DNA of 64,000 nt. Origin: a virus. Lineage: Duplodnaviria; Heunggongvirae; Uroviricota; Caudoviricetes. The first letter of the stretch is position 1; each line of letters begins with the position of its first letter. Below, piece after piece: positions 3,695 through 51,312 of the stretch. The position numbers were made by a program, and so were the translations under genes. The notes under the pieces are model-generated. The model was not told the DNA's origin. It made no database searches and saw nothing but the letters and a program-made list of their open reading frames with translations. The DNA lies in IMG/VR virus record IMGVR_UViG_3300001687_000010; one strand, given 5' to 3'.

Positions 3695-3937
3695 ATGTTT
3701 GACGATATATTACCGAAGCCTGTTAAACAATACAATTATACATTTGGTAAGGGAACGGTTGATATTGATTTTATAGAGAAAACCGTCAGAGTAAAATGCC
3801 ATAAAAGTTCAGACCATAATTGGGAAACCATGAAAGGAATGTTTGAGATTATTAATGAAGCCCTTCATGATGATTCCCCGTTTTACGATTTATCTGATGT
3901 AAAAGCATTATTAAAAGACGGATGGAGATTTTCATGA
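3695..3937 (+). CDS. Hypothetical protein
   Basis: ORF with SD GGAG, tightly packed in an operon. Confidence 0.6.
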   Translation: MFDDILPKPVKQYNYTFGKGTVDIDFIEKTVRVKCHKSSDHNWETMKGMFEIINEALHDDSPFYDLSDVKALLKDGWRFS

Positions 3938-4218
3938 ATAAACCAAATCCAGAAATAGTAATAAGACGTAGTGGCTCAAGCCTAAAATTTACCAGTTGGC
4001 TCACCTTAATATTTGTTGTAGCAAAAATAATGGGTTACATAGATTGGTCATGGTGGTGGGTATTTGCACCTACATGGATTCCATTTGCCATAGGCATCGG
4101 TATTATGGTCGTGGGACTGTTTATATTTGGGCTTGTGCTTGCGGGCGCACTTATACTGGATACAATAGATAAAACAAGAGGGAAGCGTGGCAAGAAGAGT
4201 AATAGTCGAATTCGATAA
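3934..4218 (+). CDS. Small two-TM phage membrane protein
   Basis: LTLIFVVAKIMGYIDWSWWWVFAPTWIP, a pattern common in phage membrane proteins. Start chosen at MNKPN. Confidence 0.7.
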   Translation: MNKPNPEIVIRRSGSSLKFTSWLTLIFVVAKIMGYIDWSWWWVFAPTWIPFAIGIGIMVVGLFIFGLVLAGALILDTIDKTRGKRGKKSNSRIR

Positions 4219-4465: not shown

Positions 4466-5275
4466 AGCGAGCAACTTCTCCAGTTGTTCTGCGGTTACTC
4501 TTACTCCCTTATATTCTATAAAATCATCGGTTACAACAAATAGCGGTTTATTATCTCCCATGACTTTTGTTACTTCACCCGGAGTAAACCCTTCATATCC
4601 GACTGCGAGGCCTACAGGATAGCCTTCATATTTTTCGGCTTCAAGTAAACGCCATCCATTATCCAGTCCAATATCAGCACCGTTTACAAGATTAGCCCAT
4701 AGGTTTTTCCATTTATTATCAGTCTTACCTAAATCATATGCACCAGATACAGCAGGAAGGATATCCGCATCTGCATAAACATCACCACCGGCCGATAGCC
4801 ATATATCATTAGTAGTGGCTAATATAAGGTCATTATCAACTGCTCCATCGTACCCTTCAAATAATTCAGGGCCGGTAGATGAGTTGCCAAGTCTAATACC
4901 ACGTCTTCGGGTAACAAAGGCATAATGGCTTGAATCTGGATATGTAGCGGGGTCCCAAACCTGAACTGGCCCATCTGGGAACATAGATATAAAACCAACT
5001 CCAGTGGCATCCGCTTTTACGCCACCAAGTTGTAAATTGCCTCCCACTCGTCTGCAATTAATTAGACCAGCACCTTCATAATCTTTAATTTCAATATAAT
5101 TAGTTGCATCGGCACCAATTTTTACTCCACCTTGGCTTGTGGTACTCATAAGCATACCATTGCCTGATACATGAATATCATTAGTGCTTGATATAACAAG
5201 GTCGTTTAGATTATTGGCTTCTTTGCCGACAAACATATTAGCCGTTGTCGCCCCATTATTTAATTGTCGCCCCAT
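4457..5275 (-). CDS. Tail fibre-associated protein, C-terminal part of a split gene
   Basis: Two NDLV..STNDI..S repeats and DILPAVSGAYDLGKTDNKWKNLW, a motif typical of tail fibres. Becomes in frame with 5256-5852 when one 19-bp copy is removed. Confidence 0.7.
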   Translation of the reverse strand: MGRQLNNGATTANMFVGKEANNLNDLVISSTNDIHVSGNGMLMSTTSQGGVKIGADATNYIEIKDYEGAGLINCRRVGGNLQLGGVKADATGVGFISMFPDGPVQVWDPATYPDSSHYAFVTRRRGIRLGNSSTGPELFEGYDGAVDNDLILATTNDIWLSAGGDVYADADILPAVSGAYDLGKTDNKWKNLWANLVNGADIGLDNGWRLLEAEKYEGYPVGLAVGYEGFTPGEVTKVMGDNKPLFVVTDDFIEYKGVRVTAEQLEKLLALV

Positions 5276-5282
5276 TATTTAA
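5245..5282. repeat. Perfect 19-bp tandem duplication causing a frameshift
   Basis: ttgtcgccccattatttaa x2 (5245-5263, 5264-5282). Confidence 0.95.
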
Positions 5283-5852
5283 TATAAGTTTAGGTACTGT
5301 AACACCACCATCTGGTTGCCTTGCTTGAAGCATGACAGTATCATTATGTATTAATTGTATAGATTCTACAGTATAGCCGCCGGTGCCAATAGCGTCATTT
5401 ATTCTAATTTGACCATTTATACCATTACCGTCTGTAGCTATTACTTTAAAATATCCACCACCTTCTTCAGTATTATTAGAAAAATATATATAATTGTTTG
5501 TATCTACTATTTGGGCATAAAAGATTCCCTCAGTTCCGCTTTGCGTATTTACTCTTAAATAAGTAGTTAAACCATCGAAATCACCGATATACTGGTTTAC
5601 ATCTTCAAATTGTCCACGATTTAATTTATTAGTGTTTATATAGGCAATTGAACCAGCCGATAGATGAATATCATTAGTGCTTGCTACAACAAGGTCATTT
5701 AAGGTTGCTCCATCTTTACTAATAAATATATTATAAAGCCCACCTCCGCCTAAACTCACATTTCCATTATCCAAATAAAGAGCATCTTGTCCACCTATAA
5801 GAATTTTCTCATTTGCTCTAAGTTCTAAATTGCTATTTTTAAATTTTGCCAT
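5256..5852 (-). CDS. Tail fibre-associated protein, N-terminal part of a split gene
   Basis: Contains the ISKDGATLNDLVVASTNDIHLSAG repeat; ends LNNGATIK* inside the duplication. Confidence 0.7.
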   Translation of the reverse strand: MAKFKNSNLELRANEKILIGGQDALYLDNGNVSLGGGGLYNIFISKDGATLNDLVVASTNDIHLSAGSIAYINTNKLNRGQFEDVNQYIGDFDGLTTYLRVNTQSGTEGIFYAQIVDTNNYIYFSNNTEEGGGYFKVIATDGNGINGQIRINDAIGTGGYTVESIQLIHNDTVMLQARQPDGGVTVPKLILNNGATIK

Positions 5853-5892
5853 AGTTTCTCCGTCCTAAGACCGTCTGTTTCCAGACCGAGTA

Positions 5893-8800
5893 TTATCTTA
5901 ATAATTGCCAATCTAATTCAAAGTTAGTTGAATCCAATACACCATTAAATAGGATTTTAAATCCGGCAGTTGTTTTTTCGTATATAACGTGACTATAAAC
6001 TGACGGCGGATTATCAACCGTGTTTACAAGTTGCGTTACGATTTTATATGTTGTATCTGCTTGTGCTACACCGAATGCGATAGATGCGCTTATAGCACCG
6101 GATGTTAATGTTGCTGTTCCAGTTATATTATCCGGTAGGTCAATACCTCCGCTAACGCTTAATGAACCTTCAACAATTACTCTACCTTCAAATACGTTAG
6201 TGCTATTTGCACCGGCTGAGTATAGGTTATATTTGTTAACCCAACTATTAGCGGTTGATTGGTCTTGGATATATAAACCGTATAAATTTTGTAATACACC
6301 AGTTGATGCACCATTTCCCGGTGTTTCTATTAAAATACCATATCCATTTGTAACAGATATTTCACCAGTACCATATTCAAATAATCTAAAATTACCAGCC
6401 ATATAATTAGTTGCTTGATAATCTACCATACCAAATCCGGTATTGGCCCAACCCTGCAATCCAATTACATCTGTTATTTGACCATAATCAGCAGTTGGAG
6501 CACCAGTTGCCCTAACACCTAATACTAAATTACCAGATGCATTTTCTGATGACATATTAGCAGTAATATTTGCGCCTTGAATTTCATCAAATTGAGTGCC
6601 ACCGACATCAGAAGCAAAAAGTAATCCAGTTGATTGGATAGTAGGACCGCTACTTGTATTAGTAACACCACCATATACTCCCCATATGCCAGTTGAATAA
6701 GAACCCGATTCAAAAGCAGTTAATAAAATACCATATGCTGGGGCTGCGCCAAAATCAACAGTTTGAGAACCTATTGATACATGACCGGGGATATATACGC
6801 CTTGATTTGTATTTGCGGTATGTAAATATATATCACCAGAATTGGCCGATACGTGAATATCGTTTGTTGTGCTTGCTACAACAAGGTCATTTAAAATTGC
6901 GCCATCATTGCTAATGAATATATTATCTTCCCATCTCAATTCACCCGGAGAAGATATAATAATGTTTTGTTCTGTAGTTATATCTTTGCCGAAAATCCAT
7001 CTTCTATAATCTGAGTTTACATCATAAACAAGAGCATTAATATCATTATTTGGACCAAGAGTAAAATATGGAAATAAACCAGCATAACCAGCACCAATTT
7101 CAAAATATTCACTATCGGAATCAAAATCAGCGGGCATATATATTCTTAATGAACCACCTGATTGCGAATTGCCACCATAAAGAGCAAGAATACCTCTATT
7201 TTCATCATCTCCGCCGACATTTATAGTGGTACTGCCGCCTGCTGCTGAAACATTTAACGAACTATTGATATATGAGGTTCCTTGTGGGTCAAAAATTGCA
7301 ATATTTCTATCATAAACACTATCGTTACCTATTAATTGAACAAGACCGCCGGAGCGATTGTTTTCAATTATAAAATTATCACCAGACCTATAAATTTGCA
7401 TATAAGATGAACTTATAAAATTTAAAGTTCCACCTTGTATATTGGCATTATGACTTATAGTAAATAGTTGATTGTCTATATCACAAGATAATAGATTTGT
7501 AATACCTTCTCCGTCGAAATAACCAATATCAAAAGCCCCATTAGCTCGGATTACATAATAATCATATGTGTCAAGGTCAGCTCCGTTATAAAGATAGATA
7601 ATACCACCAGTTTCGGCTGCATCTCCATATACATTAATAATTCCCTGTGTTGTGTCATCTTGACCAACTGATAATCCATCAGGTATATGGACTTCGCCAG
7701 CAGATAAGTGAATATCATTTGTGCTTGCTACAACAAGGTCATTTAAATTAGCACCATCTTGGCCAATAAACAAATTAGCAGGATTGGTTCCACCAATATT
7801 TAATTCTAATTTTCCTTTCCATAATTGCCATGTTTGTTCACCGTTATCAAAAAATAAATTATTTTCACCATTCCATCCTATATTAAAATCATCAGTATAA
7901 CTGCTTAATCTATAATTATTTACCACCTGCTGATTAGTATAAATGTTTATCTGCCCACCATTTTTGGCACCGTCTCCATAAACATTAAATATTCCTCTAA
8001 CACCACCATTGGACTTTCCTAAGTTTAATGTGGTGCTTGCATTGTTGGTAATGTTTACAACAGAAGCCGATACATGAATATCGTTTGCTGTATTTTCTAT
8101 AACAAGGTCATTTAAGTTTGCTCCATCTTTACCGATAAATATACTTGCGGGAGATAGGTCTAAACCACCTGTACCTCCGAAATATATTGTATTACCGGCT
8201 GATAGCCATATATTATTTGTATTGGCTACAACAAGGTCATTTGCGTTTGCCGGTTCTTTTCCGACAAAAACGTTTCCTTCAACGGCATTGCTGTTTTGAA
8301 CAATCAAACCACCTTGTCTTGTTCGTGTTACTATGCTATTACCGGAATATTGCTGTACGCCACGTTCCGGTCCTAATTTCATTAGTTTATCATACCTACC
8401 ACTTTCGGCATAGGTGATTCTGATTTGTGCTTTGTTTACACGAACATCACCAGCGGAAATGGACTGAACAATAAACATTAAATAAAGATTTTGAACATCT
8501 GTCCAAGTCCAGTTGCCTGTACCCGGAGCATTTGTATCATCTGTAATATCTATCCAATCCATCCAAGTTGGATACTCATTATAACCGCTTGATAGGTTGA
8601 GAGCAGTTCCATCGTTTGCACCCGGGCCGAATCTTGGTTGTAAATTCATAACTGAGAAGCCAACACAAGTCATCAAGCCTCTCATTTCAACTTTGGTAAT
8701 AGTTCCCAAATTAGTTCCATCACAAGGAGTGCCGTTTAGAATTAAATAACTGCCCGGACTGGTTGAGTTTGCGTATGTGGCTTCATCTGCATCGGTTGCG

Positions 8801-11800
8801 TTATCATGGTTATTCCAACCTTCTCCATCCGTCCATGAGGTGTAACTATATGTAATTGATTGTTCTGGGCCTAATTCATTCGGATTCCAACCGTATGCGG
8901 TAATTGAATTACCACCATATTCATAAAGGTTAACTCCGGGTGCGCCTGCGGATATTACAAGGTTGCCACCGGCATTAACTAAAAACGATTGACCGGCTGA
9001 AATCCATATATCGTTAGTTGTATTTGATATTACAAGGTCATCAATAACGGATGCTTCTTGGCCGATAAATAAATCAGCTCTGGCTCCTGCTAAATCATCA
9101 GATATGGAAACCTTTCTTTCTAAAAATCTCCATGTATGAGATGTTGCCTCATAACGCAATGAATCTGTTTTGATATCAGGGCCTAATGTTAAATCTGCAC
9201 GAGGTGACACTAACGCCGTACCAATATGATAATAGTCAACTATACTATCTTCAGTTGATGAATTATAAACAAGCAACCTACTACCAGTTTTACTTGCGCC
9301 GCCATATAAATATATTTGAGATGAAGAAACACCATCCTGTCCCAAAGATAACTGTAAACCAGTGTTGCCGGGTGCTTTTAAATTAACAAGTCCACTACTG
9401 GCTGATACCCATATAGAATTGTTATTAGTGCTTCCTAATACAAGGTCACCGCCTATTGCGGTTTCATGGCCAATGTATATATAACCTTGTGCTTGATTAT
9501 CAGTATCATAAAACTCTAAACCTTTATTACCATAATCCCAATATGTACCGGCCATTTTTTGAGTTGCGCCATGATTTTCCCATAATACAACTTGATTTGT
9601 TACCGGACTGGTTTCTACATAAGAATTTCCAGTGGAACCAAAATGTATATCATTATTAGATGGGTCAATTTTAATCCATTGGTCTGTACCTGATTGTACA
9701 TAAAATTGCGGCCCGGAACCAACATCCCATCGTGCATATGTTCCGGTTTGATTTCCGATAATTAAAGAACTGGTATTACCATCAATAATTTGAGTAAAGC
9801 CAGTATCTGCATTATACCACGATACGTCAAATATGCCATTATCCATATTGATTGTGGTTTGTTGACCTGCTACTCCAGTTCCGGCTGATAGCCATAAACC
9901 ATTTGTGCTTATTAATACAAGGTCATTTGCAACAGCAGGTTCTTTACCATAAATCATACCATCATCTTGGTTTGTAATTGTAAAACCACGTCTTGTTGAA
10001 AGACGAGCCGTCCCACTATTGTATATCCATCCAATGCCAGAATTTATACCATCATGTTGAAGTTGAAAATTATTATTAGATGTTCGAAGTTGATAATAGG
10101 TTAAATTATTATCATAATGAGGCCAGAACCATATTGACGGCCCTGTACTATTACCAAGAGCTGAACCATATATGTTAATTTGACTTGAACTTTGTGGTCT
10201 TGCTGTTGGTATACCTATATTAAGTATACCTTGTCCATAATCGTTATCTACAGTAGGATGAAATACAGTTAAAGCTGTATCAGAAGAATTGGCAGCTGAA
10301 AGAGCCACAGAACCAACTTGACCAAATGGGTTAGAATGTAAATTATTAAATTCTAAATAACCAGCAGATACCAATATTCTATTATTAATATTAGTACCTA
10401 ATACAATATCATTATCAGATTTTAAAACGGTCGATTTGCCTATATTTTCATGTACAAATAAATGGCCTTTATTTCCTTTGGTATTTAATACAGATAGACC
10501 GCCCACTCTTGATTGTGATACTTTATTGTTTAAATGATATGATTCATTACCGGCGGAATTAAACCTTTTTAATGTATATAAATCAGCCGGTGTAGTTTCG
10601 TTATATGTAACTAATACTTCTGTTTCATATAAATATAAAGGTGCACCGCCGCCATTATAATGAAAGAAGTGCAATTGAAGATTGGCAACATCTGCCCAAG
10701 TCCAGTTTCCTGTTCCCGGCGCATTTGTATCATCTGTAATATCGTGATAATTTCCCCAAGTTGGCGGACCACCCCAATCGGGGTCAAGAGTTGTATCGAT
10801 AGCGGTTCCGGCATCAACACCATTAAAGTAAGGTGTACATGTGCTTGTTTGTCCACCTGTAAAATCGTTCTTCATAAATCTAATTTGAACTGAAACGATT
10901 TCACCAGACCCTGAACTATTATTTGTAGTTAATCTTAATTGTGTATTACTGCCACCCATGCTTGCATATGTAGATGTATTGTTATCAACAGCATTGCCCG
11001 GATTTGTAACACTACCCACAACAGTACCATAATCAGTCCATCTGAATGTATCTTGCATTTGGACTGTGTTTTCTTCGCCCAACCCATATATATTAATACC
11101 CGGTATACCGGCACTAACTATTAAATTTCCACCGGCACTGACTGTAAACGAATTATCAGAACTTCTGACCAATGCCCTATTGTTATTAGTGCCATCAGTT
11201 ATTCTATCATCATCAAATTCGGTTGTTATATTATCTATACGAGCATTTATAACTGCGTCATTATAATCTGAAGTAGCACTAAGAGAAGTTATTTGAGTAT
11301 TAGTATAAGACCTTAATTGATTATCTGCTTCAACTGAGGCTGCCGATACTGTTGATGCCTCAACTAAAAATGAATGGTAAGAATCAAGAGTAACATTATC
11401 ATTAAATTGACCACTTATTAACATAATTCTTCCATCAAAAACAACGGCTGAATTTGCCCCGGCATTAAACATTCCGGTTGGTAAACTATTACTATGCTGT
11501 GACCATGTTTTACCATCATCTGTATAATATACAGTGGTTTGACCTGTTGAGCCGTTAGTAGTTCCACCTATTACATAAAGCCTACCATTATAAACAATAC
11601 AATATGGATATTGTCGATTGGCTGGTAAGGTGCTTATTAGTGTCCATGTTCCGCCTTCATCATCAGAAACATATACTCTATCCGTAGCATCATTATTTCC
11701 GTCTGTGCCACCAATTAGCCATAATCTGTTTTTCCAATCAACAAGTCCTCCGCCATTCAATCCCGGTGTCGGATAAACAGGTAAATCACCTTCTGTCCAT

Positions 11801-17672: not shown

Positions 17673-17721
17673 AAAAAAGCTAAAGTTTTCTCTTGACTTG
17701 CCAATAATTAGTATATAAGAT
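17670..17721 (+). promoter_or_regulatory. Strong early promoter, extended class (copy 1)
   Basis: A-tract + aagttttctcTTGACT-N17-TAAGAT. Confidence 0.75.
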
Positions 17722-19598: not shown

Positions 19599-19627
19599 TT
19601 TACAATTTCCTCATTATATAGTATAAT
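19599..19627 (+). promoter_or_regulatory. sigma70-like promoter for the Ro60-like locus
   Basis: TTTACA-N17-TATAAT; the predicted start at ~19634 lies just before hairpin R1. Confidence 0.8.
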
Positions 19628-19641
19628 GGTACTTTATTTCA

Positions 19642-19699
19642 AGGTTGGTTACAGCAATCAATAAAACATTACCTTTGAATAATGATGAATACCAACCTG
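19642..19699 (+). ncRNA. Y-RNA-like hairpin R1 (putative)
   Basis: AGGTTGG/CCAACCT 7-bp terminal stem, TTA-CAGCAA, inner stem CATTA/TAATG with loop CCTTTGAA. Confidence 0.6.
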
Positions 19700-19724: not shown

Positions 19725-21182
19725 ATGAAAACAAAAGAAGGTGCATTCGCACATAACCATTCTTACAACCACGCACTTGAATTTTTTAGCAAAGCCGGTT
19801 CTCTTTTTAATAAAAGGGGAAGCTTTTATGGCAAACAGGCTACGGCAGTCGAATTGTTTAAGCCTGCATGGGCTGAAGACCCAGAGGTAGCTTTAAAACT
19901 TGCCTTATGGCTTCGTGACTGCCGAGGTGGAGCAGGGAATCGTTCAGGCGGACGTGAATGCTTTCGTTATATAGCCCAAACTGACCCTGAATGGTTAGCG
20001 GTAAACCTAAAACAACTTCCCGATTTAGGTCGATGGGATGACCTACGAGCAGTATATGGTACGCAGTTAGAAGCTGATGCGGCTCAAATGTGGGCAGTTG
20101 CTATTAGGGATGAAAATGTTCTGGCTGCAAAATGGGCGGATAGAAACAAGGACAATCCAGTCCGTCAATTTATGGGTCTATCTAAAGCCGATTTTAGACG
20201 CTTACTCGCAAGGGTGCGTCAAAGCCATATCGTTGAGACCAAAATGTGCCGTAAGGAATATAACGCTATTAATTATGAGACCGTTCCGTCTGTGGCGATG
20301 TCCAGATATACTAACGCCTTTAAGAAAAACGACCCTGAACGATTTGAAGAATTTAAGAGTAAAATCGAAAAGGGTGAGGCTAAAGTACACGCCGATGTTC
20401 TGTTTCCGCACGACTGCGTTAGAACCGCAAGACACGGTGATAGAAAAATGGCCGATGCTCAATTCGATGCGTTGCCGAATTATTTAGACGGTACGGACGA
20501 AAAGATTATCGTTATATCCGATACATCTGGCTCGATGGGAACAGTGGTGGCTGGTTCTGTATGTGCAATGGACGTATCGCAAGGTATGGCTTTATATTGC
20601 TCAAGCAGATTGCCAGAGGATAGTCCGTTCTATAAACGCTTTATCGGATTTTGCTCTGAAGGTACGTTTAAGGAATGGCGTGGGATGACCTTCTCACAGG
20701 CTGTGCATAACCGTAAGGTATTTGATGGGGCTGTTGGCTCAACCCGTATTGACTTGGCCTTGGATTTAATTCTCGATATTGCCAAAAAACGTAATATTGA
20801 CCAGTCATTAATGCCGACAACTTTGCTTATCGTATCGGATATGCAGTTCCATCAAGGTGCTCGCCCTGCCAAATCAGCGTCCAGACATAATTACAATTAC
20901 TGGTATGATGAAGCAGATGCGAAAAGTGCCGGGGTTATAGATACCGAAGTTGAAATGTGTTTAACCCACTGGGACGAGGCCGGTTATATAAGACCTAAAA
21001 TTGTATACTGGAATACCGCAGGATATAGCGGACAACAGGCTACGGTTGAGGGCAGAAACGTGGGCTTAATATCAGGTTTTAGCCCAAGTGTATTAAAGGC
21101 GATATTCGGTGGTACGGATTTTTCACCTTTAGGTATTATGATGAGGGCTTTAGAAAAATACCAAGTAGAATCGCCTATATAA
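19725..21182 (+). CDS. TROVE + vWA domain protein (DUF2828 / Ro60-related RNA-binding protein)
   Basis: WLRDCRGGAGNR, GRWDDL, LAAKWADR, LFPHD, MIDAS-like DTSGSM, IVSDMQF, IVYWN and ISGFSP motifs. Confidence 0.85.
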   Translation: MKTKEGAFAHNHSYNHALEFFSKAGSLFNKRGSFYGKQATAVELFKPAWAEDPEVALKLALWLRDCRGGAGNRSGGRECFRYIAQTDPEWLAVNLKQLPDLGRWDDLRAVYGTQLEADAAQMWAVAIRDENVLAAKWADRNKDNPVRQFMGLSKADFRRLLARVRQSHIVETKMCRKEYNAINYETVPSVAMSRYTNAFKKNDPERFEEFKSKIEKGEAKVHADVLFPHDCVRTARHGDRKMADAQFDALPNYLDGTDEKIIVISDTSGSMGTVVAGSVCAMDVSQGMALYCSSRLPEDSPFYKRFIGFCSEGTFKEWRGMTFSQAVHNRKVFDGAVGSTRIDLALDLILDIAKKRNIDQSLMPTTLLIVSDMQFHQGARPAKSASRHNYNYWYDEADAKSAGVIDTEVEMCLTHWDEAGYIRPKIVYWNTAGYSGQQATVEGRNVGLISGFSPSVLKAIFGGTDFSPLGIMMRALEKYQVESPI

Positions 21183-21191
21183 ACGATTTGA

Positions 21192-21259
21192 AGGATGGAT
21201 TCAGCAAACCATACAACATAGAAGACTAATAATCTTTAATTGTTACCACCACCATCCTG
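21192..21259 (+). ncRNA. Y-RNA-like hairpin R2 (putative)
   Basis: AGGATGG/CCATCCT 7-bp stem, ATT-CAGCAA, inner stem GAAGA/TCTTT with 7-nt loop CTAATAA. Confidence 0.6.
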
Positions 21260-21285: not shown

Positions 21286-21343
21286 AGACTGGGTTCAGCA
21301 AACCACTATGACGCATAGATAGGGAACTGTCGGAACCAGTCTG
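21286..21343 (+). ncRNA. Y-RNA-like hairpin R3 (putative)
   Basis: AGACTGG/CCAGTCT 7-bp stem, GTT-CAGCAA, inner hairpins CTATG/CATAG and ATAG-GGAA-CTGT. Confidence 0.6.
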
Positions 21344-21382
21344 AGTAATACCAGATGGTTCCCTATCACTCAACTCCTTTCT

Positions 21383-21409
21383 GGGGATGGTTTCGGCCAT
21401 CCCCTTTTT
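21383..21409 (+). terminator. Intrinsic terminator closing the Ro60-like/hairpin transcript
   Basis: GGGGATGG-TTTCGG-CCATCCCC followed by TTTTT. Confidence 0.85.
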
Positions 21410-21450
21410 GTTTCTATTTACAACTCCTAAAAAATATGTTACAATATATA

Positions 21451-21511
21451 GAAAAAAAGTGAAAAAAGACTCAAGTTTTCTCTTGACTGGCCGATATTCC
21501 TGTTGTAACAT
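21451..21511 (+). promoter_or_regulatory. Strong early promoter, extended class (copy 2)
   Basis: gaaaaaaagtgaaaaaagactcaagttttctcTTGACT-N17-TAACAT. Confidence 0.75.
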
Positions 21512-23510: not shown

Positions 23511-23571
23511 GAAAAAAAGTGAAAAAAAGACTCAAGTTTCCCTTGACTTTACCGATATTGTGTTATAGGAT
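23511..23571 (+). promoter_or_regulatory. Strong early promoter, extended class (copy 3)
   Basis: gaaaaaaagtgaaaaaaagactcaagtttcccTTGACT-N17-TAGGAT. Confidence 0.75.
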
Positions 23572-48781: not shown

Positions 48782-50005
48782 TTACGCAGGAAGGTTAGTT
48801 AGGCTTACTTTCTGGTAATAATTCTTGCTACCAAACAAGTGGTCGTGAATTCCGTAACGGCTCATCAATCCAAGTGCAGGATTAAAAGAATCCTCAAAGG
48901 TCGCACGAGAAGCAAGTAGCTGAATATACGGCAAATAAATAACGCCAGTATCATACTCACTTGGGCCTTTGTAACCAACGATAAATTGGTTGCTACTCTG
49001 GAAGGTATCACGGTATACGCTTAGTCTACCGTCAAGGGAACCGATTCGAGAAATTCCAACAGCAGAAGTATTAACATTTCCGGGTACCGGCGCAATTGTA
49101 AATGCCGCCATTGACTCAAATATCGCTACTGAGTACGGGTCACCTACAATCCAGTTACCTGAACCACGTCTTGTGTTAATAGCAATCTGTTGTGCTCTGC
49201 GGAGAATGTAGTGATATAGTTCTCTATATCTTTCCATTTCCCATCTACCACCGGGTACGCCTGTTCCTGAAGCGGCTTGGTAATTCCAAGTCAAGTCATA
49301 GTTAGCACCACCGGCTACGCAGACTGCGTCAATTTTCTCGATGAGTTCACGGTCAATTTCTGCCGTAATTTCATAAGCAAGAATATCCATCATTTCCTCT
49401 TCGAGGTTAAGACCGTGCATTGCTTTAAGGTCTTGGGCTACCTCAAGAGACCAACGGCTTCTTAACTTACGGGTTTTGGCTTCAATCTGTGCCTTCTCAA
49501 CGGTCATATTAATTTCATTAATATGTGTTCCGGCACCGACACCTAAACCAACGTCATTACCAACACCTGCGCCTGCTTTTGAACCCAACGCTTCACCGGC
49601 TGATGTTACATAAGAACCTGAGTAAGAGCTATCGATTGTATTGTAACCAAGTTCAGTGGTATTTGCGGTATAATTACCGGCAGTCGTACCAGCTCTAAAA
49701 CGAAGAGCAAATGCCAATCCAACAGGACCGGTCATCGGCTGAACACCTACTAAATCGTGAGCTACTAATTCAGGGAATGTACGTCTAACCATCGGTACTG
49801 CGATTTTGTGAAAAATACCTGAAGTCGGATAACCGGCTTTCGTACCGAATGAGTCATTAGGATAGGCATAGGTTGTGGCTTCTTGCAACCAGTTATGCTG
49901 ATTCTCAAGCATAATTGCGGTTGACTTGCGGACATTGGTATTACGGATTTCATTGCCCTCATTAAGAACCTCTTCCCACTTTTGCATTAGTTCTCTAATG
50001 TCCAT
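48782..50005 (-). CDS. Major capsid protein, T4 gp23-like
   Basis: VRRTFPELVAHDLVGVQPMTGPVGLAFALR, AKTRKLRSRWSLEVAQDLKAMHG, EIDRE and GYKGPSEYD motifs. Confidence 0.97.
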   Translation of the reverse strand: MDIRELMQKWEEVLNEGNEIRNTNVRKSTAIMLENQHNWLQEATTYAYPNDSFGTKAGYPTSGIFHKIAVPMVRRTFPELVAHDLVGVQPMTGPVGLAFALRFRAGTTAGNYTANTTELGYNTIDSSYSGSYVTSAGEALGSKAGAGVGNDVGLGVGAGTHINEINMTVEKAQIEAKTRKLRSRWSLEVAQDLKAMHGLNLEEEMMDILAYEITAEIDRELIEKIDAVCVAGGANYDLTWNYQAASGTGVPGGRWEMERYRELYHYILRRAQQIAINTRRGSGNWIVGDPYSVAIFESMAAFTIAPVPGNVNTSAVGISRIGSLDGRLSVYRDTFQSSNQFIVGYKGPSEYDTGVIYLPYIQLLASRATFEDSFNPALGLMSRYGIHDHLFGSKNYYQKVSLTNLPA

Positions 50006-50055: not shown

Positions 50056-50904
50056 TTATGAAATTTTGTTTTCTTTTAAAACTTGTAAGTACCGCTTTGT
50101 GTACTCAGCGAAGGGGCTTGTATCTTCTTTCATATCGCCCTTCTTCTTTTTGTCGCCGTCCTCATCTTCTTCATCTTCTTCATCGAGTTCGGCCTTTCCT
50201 TTCCCTTCTTCAACTTGGTCTTCGTTGTTTTTCGGGTCAGACTTTTTCTTTTGCTTTTCGATTACGTCCTCTCCTTCATCATCACCAACGTTTACGGGTT
50301 CAAACCGTTCACTATCGGCAATAACTTGGAATTTACGGTCAATCTCAGCTTTGTCAGTTACGCCACTTAGAATATCAAAAATTTGTGCTTTTTGACTTTC
50401 TGTTAGCCCCTGACATTTCTTGTGCAAATAAAGTTCTGCAGCCATTTCCTGTGCATCGCCTTTAAGCTCAAGGTTTTCTTGGATTGTCTTGTCCATCTGC
50501 TTGCGGAGACCTACGATTTCTTCTTTAGCCTCTTTAAGTAGACTCTTAACTTCTTCATCAAGCAATCCTTGGTCAACGCTCAAGCGCACTTTAAATTGCT
50601 CAATAAGGTCATGATATAGCTCGCCTTTTTTCGCATACTCCAAAACCTCTTCTGGAATCTTAAGCTCTTCTTCAAAAACTCCGTCTACGAAGTTAGAAAA
50701 TTTGCCGGTCATATCGTTTTTATACTCGTCAAATTTTAGCTCATATTCTTCCACGAGCTGTTCCTTCGCTTCTTCCAGTTTGGATTCGAGTAACTCTTTG
50801 GCCTTAACATCAATGACGGTATTGAGCTTCTCGGTTAAGTCAGCCTGTACTGCTTCATCAAGCTTGTCTGCACCAAGTAGTTCCAAGATTTTGGTCAAGT
50901 CCAT
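50056..50904 (-). CDS. Prohead scaffold / core protein, T4 gp22-like
   Basis: Acidic coiled-coil between gp21 and gp23; C-terminal YTKRYL; TATAAATA at 50944-50951. Confidence 0.85.
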   Translation of the reverse strand: MDLTKILELLGADKLDEAVQADLTEKLNTVIDVKAKELLESKLEEAKEQLVEEYELKFDEYKNDMTGKFSNFVDGVFEEELKIPEEVLEYAKKGELYHDLIEQFKVRLSVDQGLLDEEVKSLLKEAKEEIVGLRKQMDKTIQENLELKGDAQEMAAELYLHKKCQGLTESQKAQIFDILSGVTDKAEIDRKFQVIADSERFEPVNVGDDEGEDVIEKQKKKSDPKNNEDQVEEGKGKAELDEEDEEDEDGDKKKKGDMKEDTSPFAEYTKRYLQVLKENKIS

Positions 50905-50994
50905 TAAGCTAATACCTCCTTGTAAGATTTACTCAAATATATTTATTTATAGTACCATATTTGTTAAAATTGGTTGTAAGTTAGGGATATGATA

Positions 50995-51027
50995 GAGAAA
51001 ACCCGAATCCTAATGAATTCGGGTTTC
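50995..51027 (-). terminator. Intrinsic terminator
   Basis: AAACCCGAAT/ATTCGGGTTT stem followed by TTTTCTC on the minus strand. Confidence 0.75.
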
Positions 51028-51060
51028 GTGAGGGATAGGGGAACTGTCGGAATTTATATA

Positions 51061-51312
51061 TTATATATACTTTCCTAAAATCATATTGTTAAAAAATTGT
51101 AAGGATTTTTTAGCATTAACAAGGTCTTTAGAAAGCATCCCTGTTTCGCCATTAAATGAATTCATTTCTCTTACTAAATTTGATATATGGTCACCAACAC
51201 CATAATAAGCATCTCTTAATCTTGTAAAATCTCTACTATCCATATTTTTAAATGCTTCTCTTATATCTTTATCAGTCTCAGACGCCTCGGTTAAATATTT
51301 TTCAAAGTTCAT
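51061..51312 (-). CDS. Putative internal head protein
   Basis: MNFEKYLTE. Confidence 0.65.
   Translation of the reverse strand: MNFEKYLTEASETDKDIREAFKNMDSRDFTRLRDAYYGVGDHISNLVREMNSFNGETGMLSKDLVNAKKSLQFFNNMILGKYI

Follow-up and report, generated by a model that had tools for sequence, protein, structure and literature searches.

Can a small structured RNA encoded beside a Ro60-like gene recognize one of its own phage's messages by base pairing? The question is raised by IMG/VR virus record IMGVR_UViG_3300001687_000010, of which we analysed one stretch of 64,000 nucleotides (nt), hereafter the window. Its source is an uncultured T4-like phage: a gp23-type major capsid protein, a T4-type scaffold, a portal and a prohead protease are encoded, and a 161,607-nt contig carries the window's scaffold protein. 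Three modules of a common plan, R1–R3, flank a Ro60-like gene in the window, each with a 7-base-pair (bp) terminal stem, a 3-nt linker, CAGCAA and a variable interior. The end of the R3 interior recurs about 30 kb away, in the 3′ untranslated region (UTR) of a late open reading frame (ORF), and the original prediction, made from the sequence of the window, was that R3 acts there as a trans-acting guide for the Ro60-like protein. From sequence comparison, the relation between R3 and the UTR is very likely not a product of chance, a case that rests on a target site fixed by homology, on a position shared by two phages and on a single relative lineage. The elements of the two sites are as follows.

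21286–21342, plus strand: the R3 module, with its terminal (handle) stem (7 bp, 21286–21292 with 21336–21342), the linker GTT, CAGCAA at 21296–21301 and the interior at 21302–21335
21318–21335, plus strand: the guide-like segment g, 18 nt that close the R3 interior and abut the 3′ strand of the terminal stem
51061–51312, minus strand: a late ORF of 83 amino acids whose 3′ UTR holds the target, with homologues at the same position in two loci introduced below, L001 and L020
51034–51052, minus strand: the target segment s, UUCCGACAGUUCCCCUAUC in mRNA sense, which starts 8 nt past the stop codon of that ORF
51027–51034, minus strand: the conserved linker CCCTCACG between s and the terminator, found in the window, L001 and L020
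50998–51027, minus strand: the terminator hairpin, 13 bp followed by the U-rich UUUUCUCU, which ends the portal–protease–small-ORF late transcript

The recurrence is confirmed to the exact coordinate and strand: GATAGGGAACTGTCGGAA stands at 21318–21335 and GATAGGGGAACTGTCGGAA at 51034–51052, both read on the plus strand, the second copy with one extra G. The portal, prohead protease, scaffold and major capsid genes around the second site are all on the minus strand; R3 lies on the plus strand and the target mRNA on the minus strand, the right orientation for antisense pairing. The ORF list and the hairpin bear out that the second site is intergenic, transcribed from the minus strand and enclosed between the stop of ORF 51061–51312 and the terminator. 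In the mRNA, s ends 8 nt before the terminator hairpin, with CCUCACG and then the 13-bp hairpin following it, and is unpaired in the predicted fold of the UTR. RNAduplex reproduces the proposed duplex between R3 and the mRNA, 18 bp with one bulged mRNA base (C), at −29.7 kcal/mol.

How unusual is such a match within the window? The 14-mer GGGAACTGTCGGAA occurs at these two places only, even when up to 2 mismatches are allowed (0.19 matches expected; two matches in 0 of 100 shuffles). The 14-nt match by itself is not remarkable, because the window has 70 maximal direct exact repeats of at least 14 nt. Compared with the whole window with the R loci masked, the 34-nt R3 interior scores 32, against 23.8 ± 2.3 for shuffled sequences, of which 3 of 300 reach 32; against the intergenic region alone, the observed score is reached by none of 20,000 shuffles and none of 2,766 natural decoys. 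The interiors of R1 and R2 gave no match in the window above shuffles (scores at or below the shuffle mean, with 64 of the ~162 kb of the genome covered). When metagenome contigs were scanned for exact copies of the motif, 17 matches came up, which we take to be chance because all lie in unrelated DNA without common flanks. Taken alone, the window match is only moderately unusual, and it is convincing only together with covariation in a relative.

The informative relative is contig Ga0452209_000374 (182,762 nt), whose Ro60-like protein and scaffold are 73% and 72% identical to those of the window, and whose R3 locus (L019) and UTR locus (L020) lie ~27 kb apart in the same relative orientation as in the window. 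The R3 orthologue, at 11476–11530 of L019, keeps the handle, TATGACGCA, the 3′ tail and the terminator, and its interior ends in GAATGGGTGTTGCTAA, unlike that of the window. The L020 UTR keeps CCCTCACG and the terminator, and the segment before them is UUAGCAACAGCCCCCAUUC, with GAATGGGGGCTGTTGCTAA as its reverse complement. The relative's g and s each differ from those of the window by at least 5 substitutions and 2 indels, and match one another at 16 of 16 positions with a 3-nt bulge (GCC); both partners have changed together and still pair. When the comparison is made at the homologous UTR of 36–40 nt, the cognate pairs score 32 (window) and 24 (relative), values that none of 20,000 shuffles reaches, and the cross-phage pairs score 10 and 8, which is background. 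Among ~20,000 natural decoy windows, 23 reach the relative's score; by our estimate, overlap with the true module and with the site itself would account for roughly that many. Because the relative keeps the match with a different sequence, RNA–RNA pairing is probably real.

The placement of the match is the same in both phages: on the R3 side it occupies the last 16–18 nt of the interior, against the 3′ strand of the handle, and on the mRNA side it lies just past the stop codon, with CCCTCACG and the terminator close behind. The bulge comes after the C run in both. It had been proposed that the bulged C is a recognition feature for Ro60; the bulge, a single C in the window, consists of 3 nt (GCC) in the relative, so that a bulged C is not conserved and that part of the proposal falls. 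Ro60 binds known Y RNAs at a helix formed by their own stem, not at a guide–target duplex (PMC12135203). A further IMG/VR fragment, L001, has 87% nucleotide identity over the structural genes and preserves without change a block of 29 nt that includes s. The terminator next to this block carries compensatory changes in its stem, and the ORF upstream is divergent. Between R3 and the UTR site, compensatory change of the kind looked for in a base-pairing small RNA (sRNA) is found in one relative lineage, that of Ga0452209_000374, and is weaker with broader targets.

Two other readings of the second site were rejected. One was that it is a decayed fourth module, and neither phage has CAGCAA or a closing stem there. 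The other was that the duplex reaches into the terminator stem and acts in anti-termination, which was set aside because the complementarity stops at the 18 nt. As a separate observation, AGGGATA flanks the terminator hairpin on both sides, at 50983–50998 and 51031–51040 (TAGGGATATGATAGAG, AGGGATAGGGG).

Searches for further lineages covered cultured phages at the DNA level, where no relative was found, and IMG/VR, where the conserved pattern of the R3 tail gave no match. Ten scaffold-bearing IMG/VR records were searched with no Ro60-like gene detected, and five IMG/VR records with a Ro60-like gene with no match to the gp23-like major capsid protein. A genome-contig scan for a third lineage returned distant homologues only; the contig encoding P0243 ends at the gene. 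Two IMG/VR loci with scaffolds 64–65% identical, L105 and L107, share a conserved element, GGACCGTT(T)ATAGTTA, in the corresponding 3′ UTR, ahead of the scaffold gene; it may be their version of the target site. The search for a partner of this element gave a single match, inside an ORF of an unrelated 608-kb contig, which is a chance match.

If g pairs with the late mRNA, in what state does it wait for its target? Folded alone, R3 is a closed module at −19 kcal/mol. Downstream of the module, three further elements complete the 3′ end of the RNA.

21351–21367, plus strand: the cis arm a, which pairs with g over 16 bp with 2 G·U pairs and 1 bulged A
21368–21382, plus strand: a single-stranded, anti-Shine–Dalgarno-like tail, ACTCAACTCCTTTCT, nearly identical in L019 (~11557–11572) and in L199
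21383–21414, plus strand: the intrinsic terminator of the unit, a 9-bp GC-rich stem followed by a T run

Segment g is accordingly not a free loop; it is the 5′ arm of a 16-bp cis hairpin with arm a. L019 keeps the g–a hairpin with a different sequence, again 16 bp with 3 G·U pairs, and the G·U pairs, which form only in the plus-strand RNA, argue for a structure at the RNA level. In both phages arm a resembles the mRNA target, but with transitions that turn Watson–Crick pairs into wobble pairs. The cis hairpin is predicted at about −22 kcal/mol in the window and −24.6 kcal/mol in the relative, and the trans duplex at −29.7 and −21.9 kcal/mol, respectively; weakened by wobble pairs, arm a leaves the target as the better partner in the window phage, where cofolding predicts strand exchange to the target. 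Handle stem and cis hairpin do not nest; the two either are alternatives or form a pseudoknot, each at about −19 to −24 kcal/mol. Since g ends exactly at the start of the handle's 3′ strand, a guide–target helix would stack on the handle.

The tail ACTCAACTCCTTTCT includes CUCCUUUC, which is complementary to the AAAGGAG ribosome-binding sites of the phage and presumably resembles the 3′ end of 16S rRNA. By its sequence the tail could be a second seed, of the anti-Shine–Dalgarno type.

The neighbouring elements of the two sites are listed here, those of the early region before those of the head cluster.

19599–19627, plus strand: a strong sigma-70-like promoter of the unit formed by R1, the Ro60-like gene, R2 and R3 (TTTACA–17–TATAAT, 11 of 12 matches)
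19642–19699, plus strand: R1, the stem-plus-CAGCAA module upstream of the Ro60-like gene
19725–21182, plus strand: the gene of the Ro60-like (TROVE + vWA) protein, Pfam DUF2828 and DUF7788
21192–21259, plus strand: R2, a stem-plus-CAGCAA module
50944–50951, minus strand: the T4-type late promoter TATAAATA of the scaffold and major capsid genes
50056–50904, minus strand: the scaffold gene
48782–50005, minus strand: the major capsid gene

R3, the last of the three modules flanking the gene, begins 104 nt downstream of it. Elsewhere on the plus strand, a promoter-proximal block, GAAAAAAAGTGAAAAAAGACTCAAGTTTTCTCTTGACT, occurs in whole or in part at 17683–17698, 21451–21488 and 23511–23539, upstream of three early gene groups; it is probably an early or middle promoter, with an upstream element, that these groups share. 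The stretch 5171–8240 has several exact repeats of 15–29 nt, among them GTGCTTGCTACAACAAGGTCATTTAA (5677, 6869 and 7721), a sign of genes that are paralogous or repeated internally. At the head cluster of the relative, SpoVR and DUF444 (YeaH-like) genes stand directly after the major capsid gene (L020, 6341–8915), and the PrkA/YeaH/SpoVR insertion of the window is therefore common to the clade.

The neighbouring protein is Ro60-like by fold. At the sequence level its Pfam matches are DUF2828 and DUF7788 only, and a profile search gave no PDB match by sequence. Its AlphaFold model (predicted local distance difference test, pLDDT, 80.8; predicted template-modelling score, pTM, 0.82) was searched against the PDB with Foldseek, and the top 13 matches are all Ro60, over the full length, at probability 1.00 and a template-modelling (TM) score of ~0.5; they comprise structures from Thermus phage phiLo, Xenopus, Deinococcus and human. 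Because these top 13 fold matches are Ro60, the name proposed for the neighbour is justified at the level of the fold. Among cultured phages, a protein-level search found 704 records with homologues, all at 36% identity or less, and the homologue of the T4-like phage KVP40 has no flanking modules. In metagenomic phages, stem-plus-CAGCAA modules often form arrays behind the Ro60-like gene, and some of these modules have tRNA-like inserts. The Ro60 of phage phiLo binds adjacent Y-like RNAs and forms complexes with the host PNPase in vitro, and an infection model is still needed for the role of phage Ro60 homologues during infection (PMC12135203).

On balance we lean towards trans RNA–RNA pairing of R3 with the 3′ end of the portal–protease–small-ORF late transcript, gated by the decoy arm. 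R1–R3 would be Y-RNA-like modules made early, together with the Ro60-like protein gene, and g would be an antisense element against s of the late transcript. In free R3, arm a would keep g in a cis hairpin that is metastable; once the late genes are transcribed, the target, which forms Watson–Crick pairs throughout, would displace the cis arm, and the product would be an 18-bp bulged duplex stacked directly on the handle stem. A Ro60-like particle might thereby be tethered to the mRNA 3′ end and alter its 3′-to-5′ decay or processing. By analogy with Ro60–Y RNA–PNPase complexes, the most likely route would be that a host exonuclease is helped through the terminator hairpin; the data allow equally for the opposite, a switch in R3 conformation brought about by the tail of the mRNA. 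We infer that R3 exists as a discrete RNA, that the protein binds its handle, and that the duplex forms in vivo and has its effect there. The fuller version, in which the handle recruits the Ro60-like ring, the interior is an exchangeable guide to one phage mRNA 3′ end and the decoy arm is a safety catch, we consider possible and rather doubtful. Of the idea that R3 is a trans-acting guide for the Ro60-like protein, then, the pairing is supported and the delivery of the protein to the mRNA is not; nor is a guide role general to the module family.

Several observations weigh against pairing of R3 with the late transcript, or against its wider form. The strong p-value in the relative depends on a site fixed beforehand by homology, as the weaker results of broader searches indicate: over the whole intergenic region, on both strands, 71 of 20,000 shuffles (p 0.004) and 112 of 4,259 natural decoys (p 0.03) reach its score, and in a blind 30-kb search the UTR site is the best match, yet its score is attained by 223 of 500 shuffles. 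Independent relatives with both loci amount to one lineage, L199 being identical to L019, and L021 and L022 identical to the window. All trans pairs are Watson–Crick in both phages, and identity at the DNA level would therefore explain the match equally well. Segment g is locked in a strong cis hairpin, and in the relative the trans and cis forms are about equal in energy, with the cis form as the predicted winner. Nor do the other modules behave as R3 does: R1 and R2 have no target in the window, and ten module interiors in G003 (a complete 144-kb phage) and G001 (a 132-kb fragment) gave no match in their own genomes above shuffles. Finally, the link of the protein to the duplex is one that we infer.

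Because those ten modules of other phages, with R1 and R2, lack a match, the proposal that all module interiors are guides was rejected; from these comparisons the guide–target pair appears to be a lineage-specific elaboration. The modules of other phages vary in their own right. In L025, from the 132-kb IMG/VR phage, the CAGCAA handle surrounds tRNA-like inserts with the T-arm GTGAGTTCGAATCTCAC (G001, minus strand, 4028–4127 and 1916–2032). The interior GGAAGTAGGAAGTTAC of the L025 module at 3923–4001 pairs with a downstream arm, like that of R3, and no target for this cis-paired module was found in G001 or G011.

Which explanations compete with gated pairing? The closest would have R3, or a 3′ fragment of it with hairpin, tail and terminator, pair with the UTR as a plain antisense sRNA in which the Ro60-like protein has no role. 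The ~18-bp duplex would then be cut by a double-strand RNase, or 3′ end formation would be blocked or altered, and the adjacency to the gene would reflect incidental co-transcription. Plain antisense action without the protein fits the data equally well: it draws on the same complementarity and covariation, and the stretch 21318–21414, with its hairpin, single-stranded tail and terminator, has the layout of an ordinary bacterial sRNA. Two facts are set against it, that in both phages the handle stem starts exactly where the guide stops and that this type of module accompanies Ro60-like genes in many phages, and these suggest that the handle matters. We judge it unlikely; as a sub-variant of the pairing model, its probability overlaps that of gated pairing. 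It is mainly because every trans pair is Watson–Crick that three further explanations remain, all of them less parsimonious. A motif acting in DNA, an 18-bp site of a co-evolving DNA-binding or recombination protein, with an inverted pair at R3 and a single copy near the scaffold promoter, would account for the purely Watson–Crick trans match in both phages, for the inverted repeat at the R3 locus and for the position of the second site ~85 bp upstream of the late promoter. Yet the inverted copy departs by transitions that give G·U pairs only in the plus-strand RNA, its arms are 17–18 nt apart, unlike those of an operator, and no further copy is present in 64 kb even with 2 mismatches. Such a motif would further require that a protein and both its sites co-evolved, three ways, through at least 5 substitutions and 2 indels, and we hold it improbable.

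The similarity of arm a to s admits another account, to which we give equally little credence. The second site with its terminator, and arm a with its terminator, could be copies of one non-functional, terminator-proximal element kept alike by copying or gene conversion, in which case complementarity to g would follow automatically; a and s are indeed alike, and each is followed by a short ...CUCA... linker and a terminator. Against this, s resembles a less closely than it resembles g in reverse complement, with which it agrees at 18 of 19 and 16 of 19 positions. The flanks show no homology to support conversion of an 18-nt tract 30 kb away, and the limits of the match are sharp and coincide in two lineages whose orthologous sequences differ at many positions. 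Least probable of all, and already disfavoured, is chance: an 18-of-19 match in an AT-rich 64-kb window, picked after the fact, with the weaker match of the relative a coincidence. The 70 exact direct repeats of the window, the non-significant result of the blind 30-kb search in the relative and the unrelated DNA around all 17 metagenome motif matches are what chance would predict. It sits poorly with only 3 of 300 window-wide shuffles reaching the score, with matches at homologous positions in both partners and with cognate scores above 20,000 shuffles while the cross pairs are at background.

Gated pairing of R3 with the late transcript would combine properties of several known systems. Like R3, the RNAs of Y RNA/Ro60 systems (YrlA, RF02553; phiLo Yrl1/Yrl2; the Rsr–Y RNA–PNPase complex 'RYPER') are small structured RNAs adjoining a Ro60-fold gene, with a terminal stem and a variable distal module, and phage versions are known (PMC4201824; PMC12135203). 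The Rfam models of Y RNA and YrlA (RF00019, RF02553) gave no match at the gathering score in the window, nor any at E ≤ 10 around R1–R3. Known Y RNAs have the known Ro-binding helix in place of the CAGCAA handle motif, and YrlA has a tRNA-like distal domain that R3 lacks: ARAGORN found no tRNA-like element in the window, and a T-arm is absent from the R3 interior. Neither PMC12135203 nor PMC7824862 describes a Y RNA that pairs with a specific mRNA. With trans base-pairing sRNAs R3 shares a short contiguous antisense stretch, covariation and an RNA end made of hairpin, single-stranded tail and intrinsic terminator. Their target is usually a ribosome-binding site, whereas here it is a 3′ UTR near a terminator, and, unlike in ordinary sRNAs, the antisense stretch of R3 lies inside a Y-like handle and is pre-paired with a decoy arm.

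Two further likenesses are looser. The Dictyostelium Class I RNAs (RF01414), from different organisms, have a short terminal stem, then ...UUACAGCAA..., and a variable region. R1 (19643–19699) aligns with their model end to end at 21.6 bits (E 0.045), below the gathering score of 41.5; R2 and R3 gave no match to RF01414, and Rfam scans by gathering score and by E-value gave nothing relevant for them. The resemblance to self-sequestered-seed riboregulators (toehold or strand displacement), in which an antisense element is masked by a weaker internal partner and displaceable by a perfect target, is an analogy of design only. Class I RNAs are not known to have an antisense target, and no natural self-sequestered riboregulator is known to be linked to Ro60.

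Y RNAs have been thought of as tethers and gates of Ro60, not as sequence-specific guides. No pairing of this kind is on record for this class of RNA. If the gated pairing of R3 is real, a Y-like RNA that co-evolves with an mRNA 3′ end would offer a concrete substrate for a Ro60-type particle, a possible means by which the phage tunes the stability of its portal–protease transcript and a natural example of a self-masked antisense element, all in a system whose target, guide and decoy are short and defined. If the protein is also brought to the message, an RNA-guided Ro60 would amount to sequence-programmable RNA quality control or decay, put to use in the temporal control of head-gene expression.
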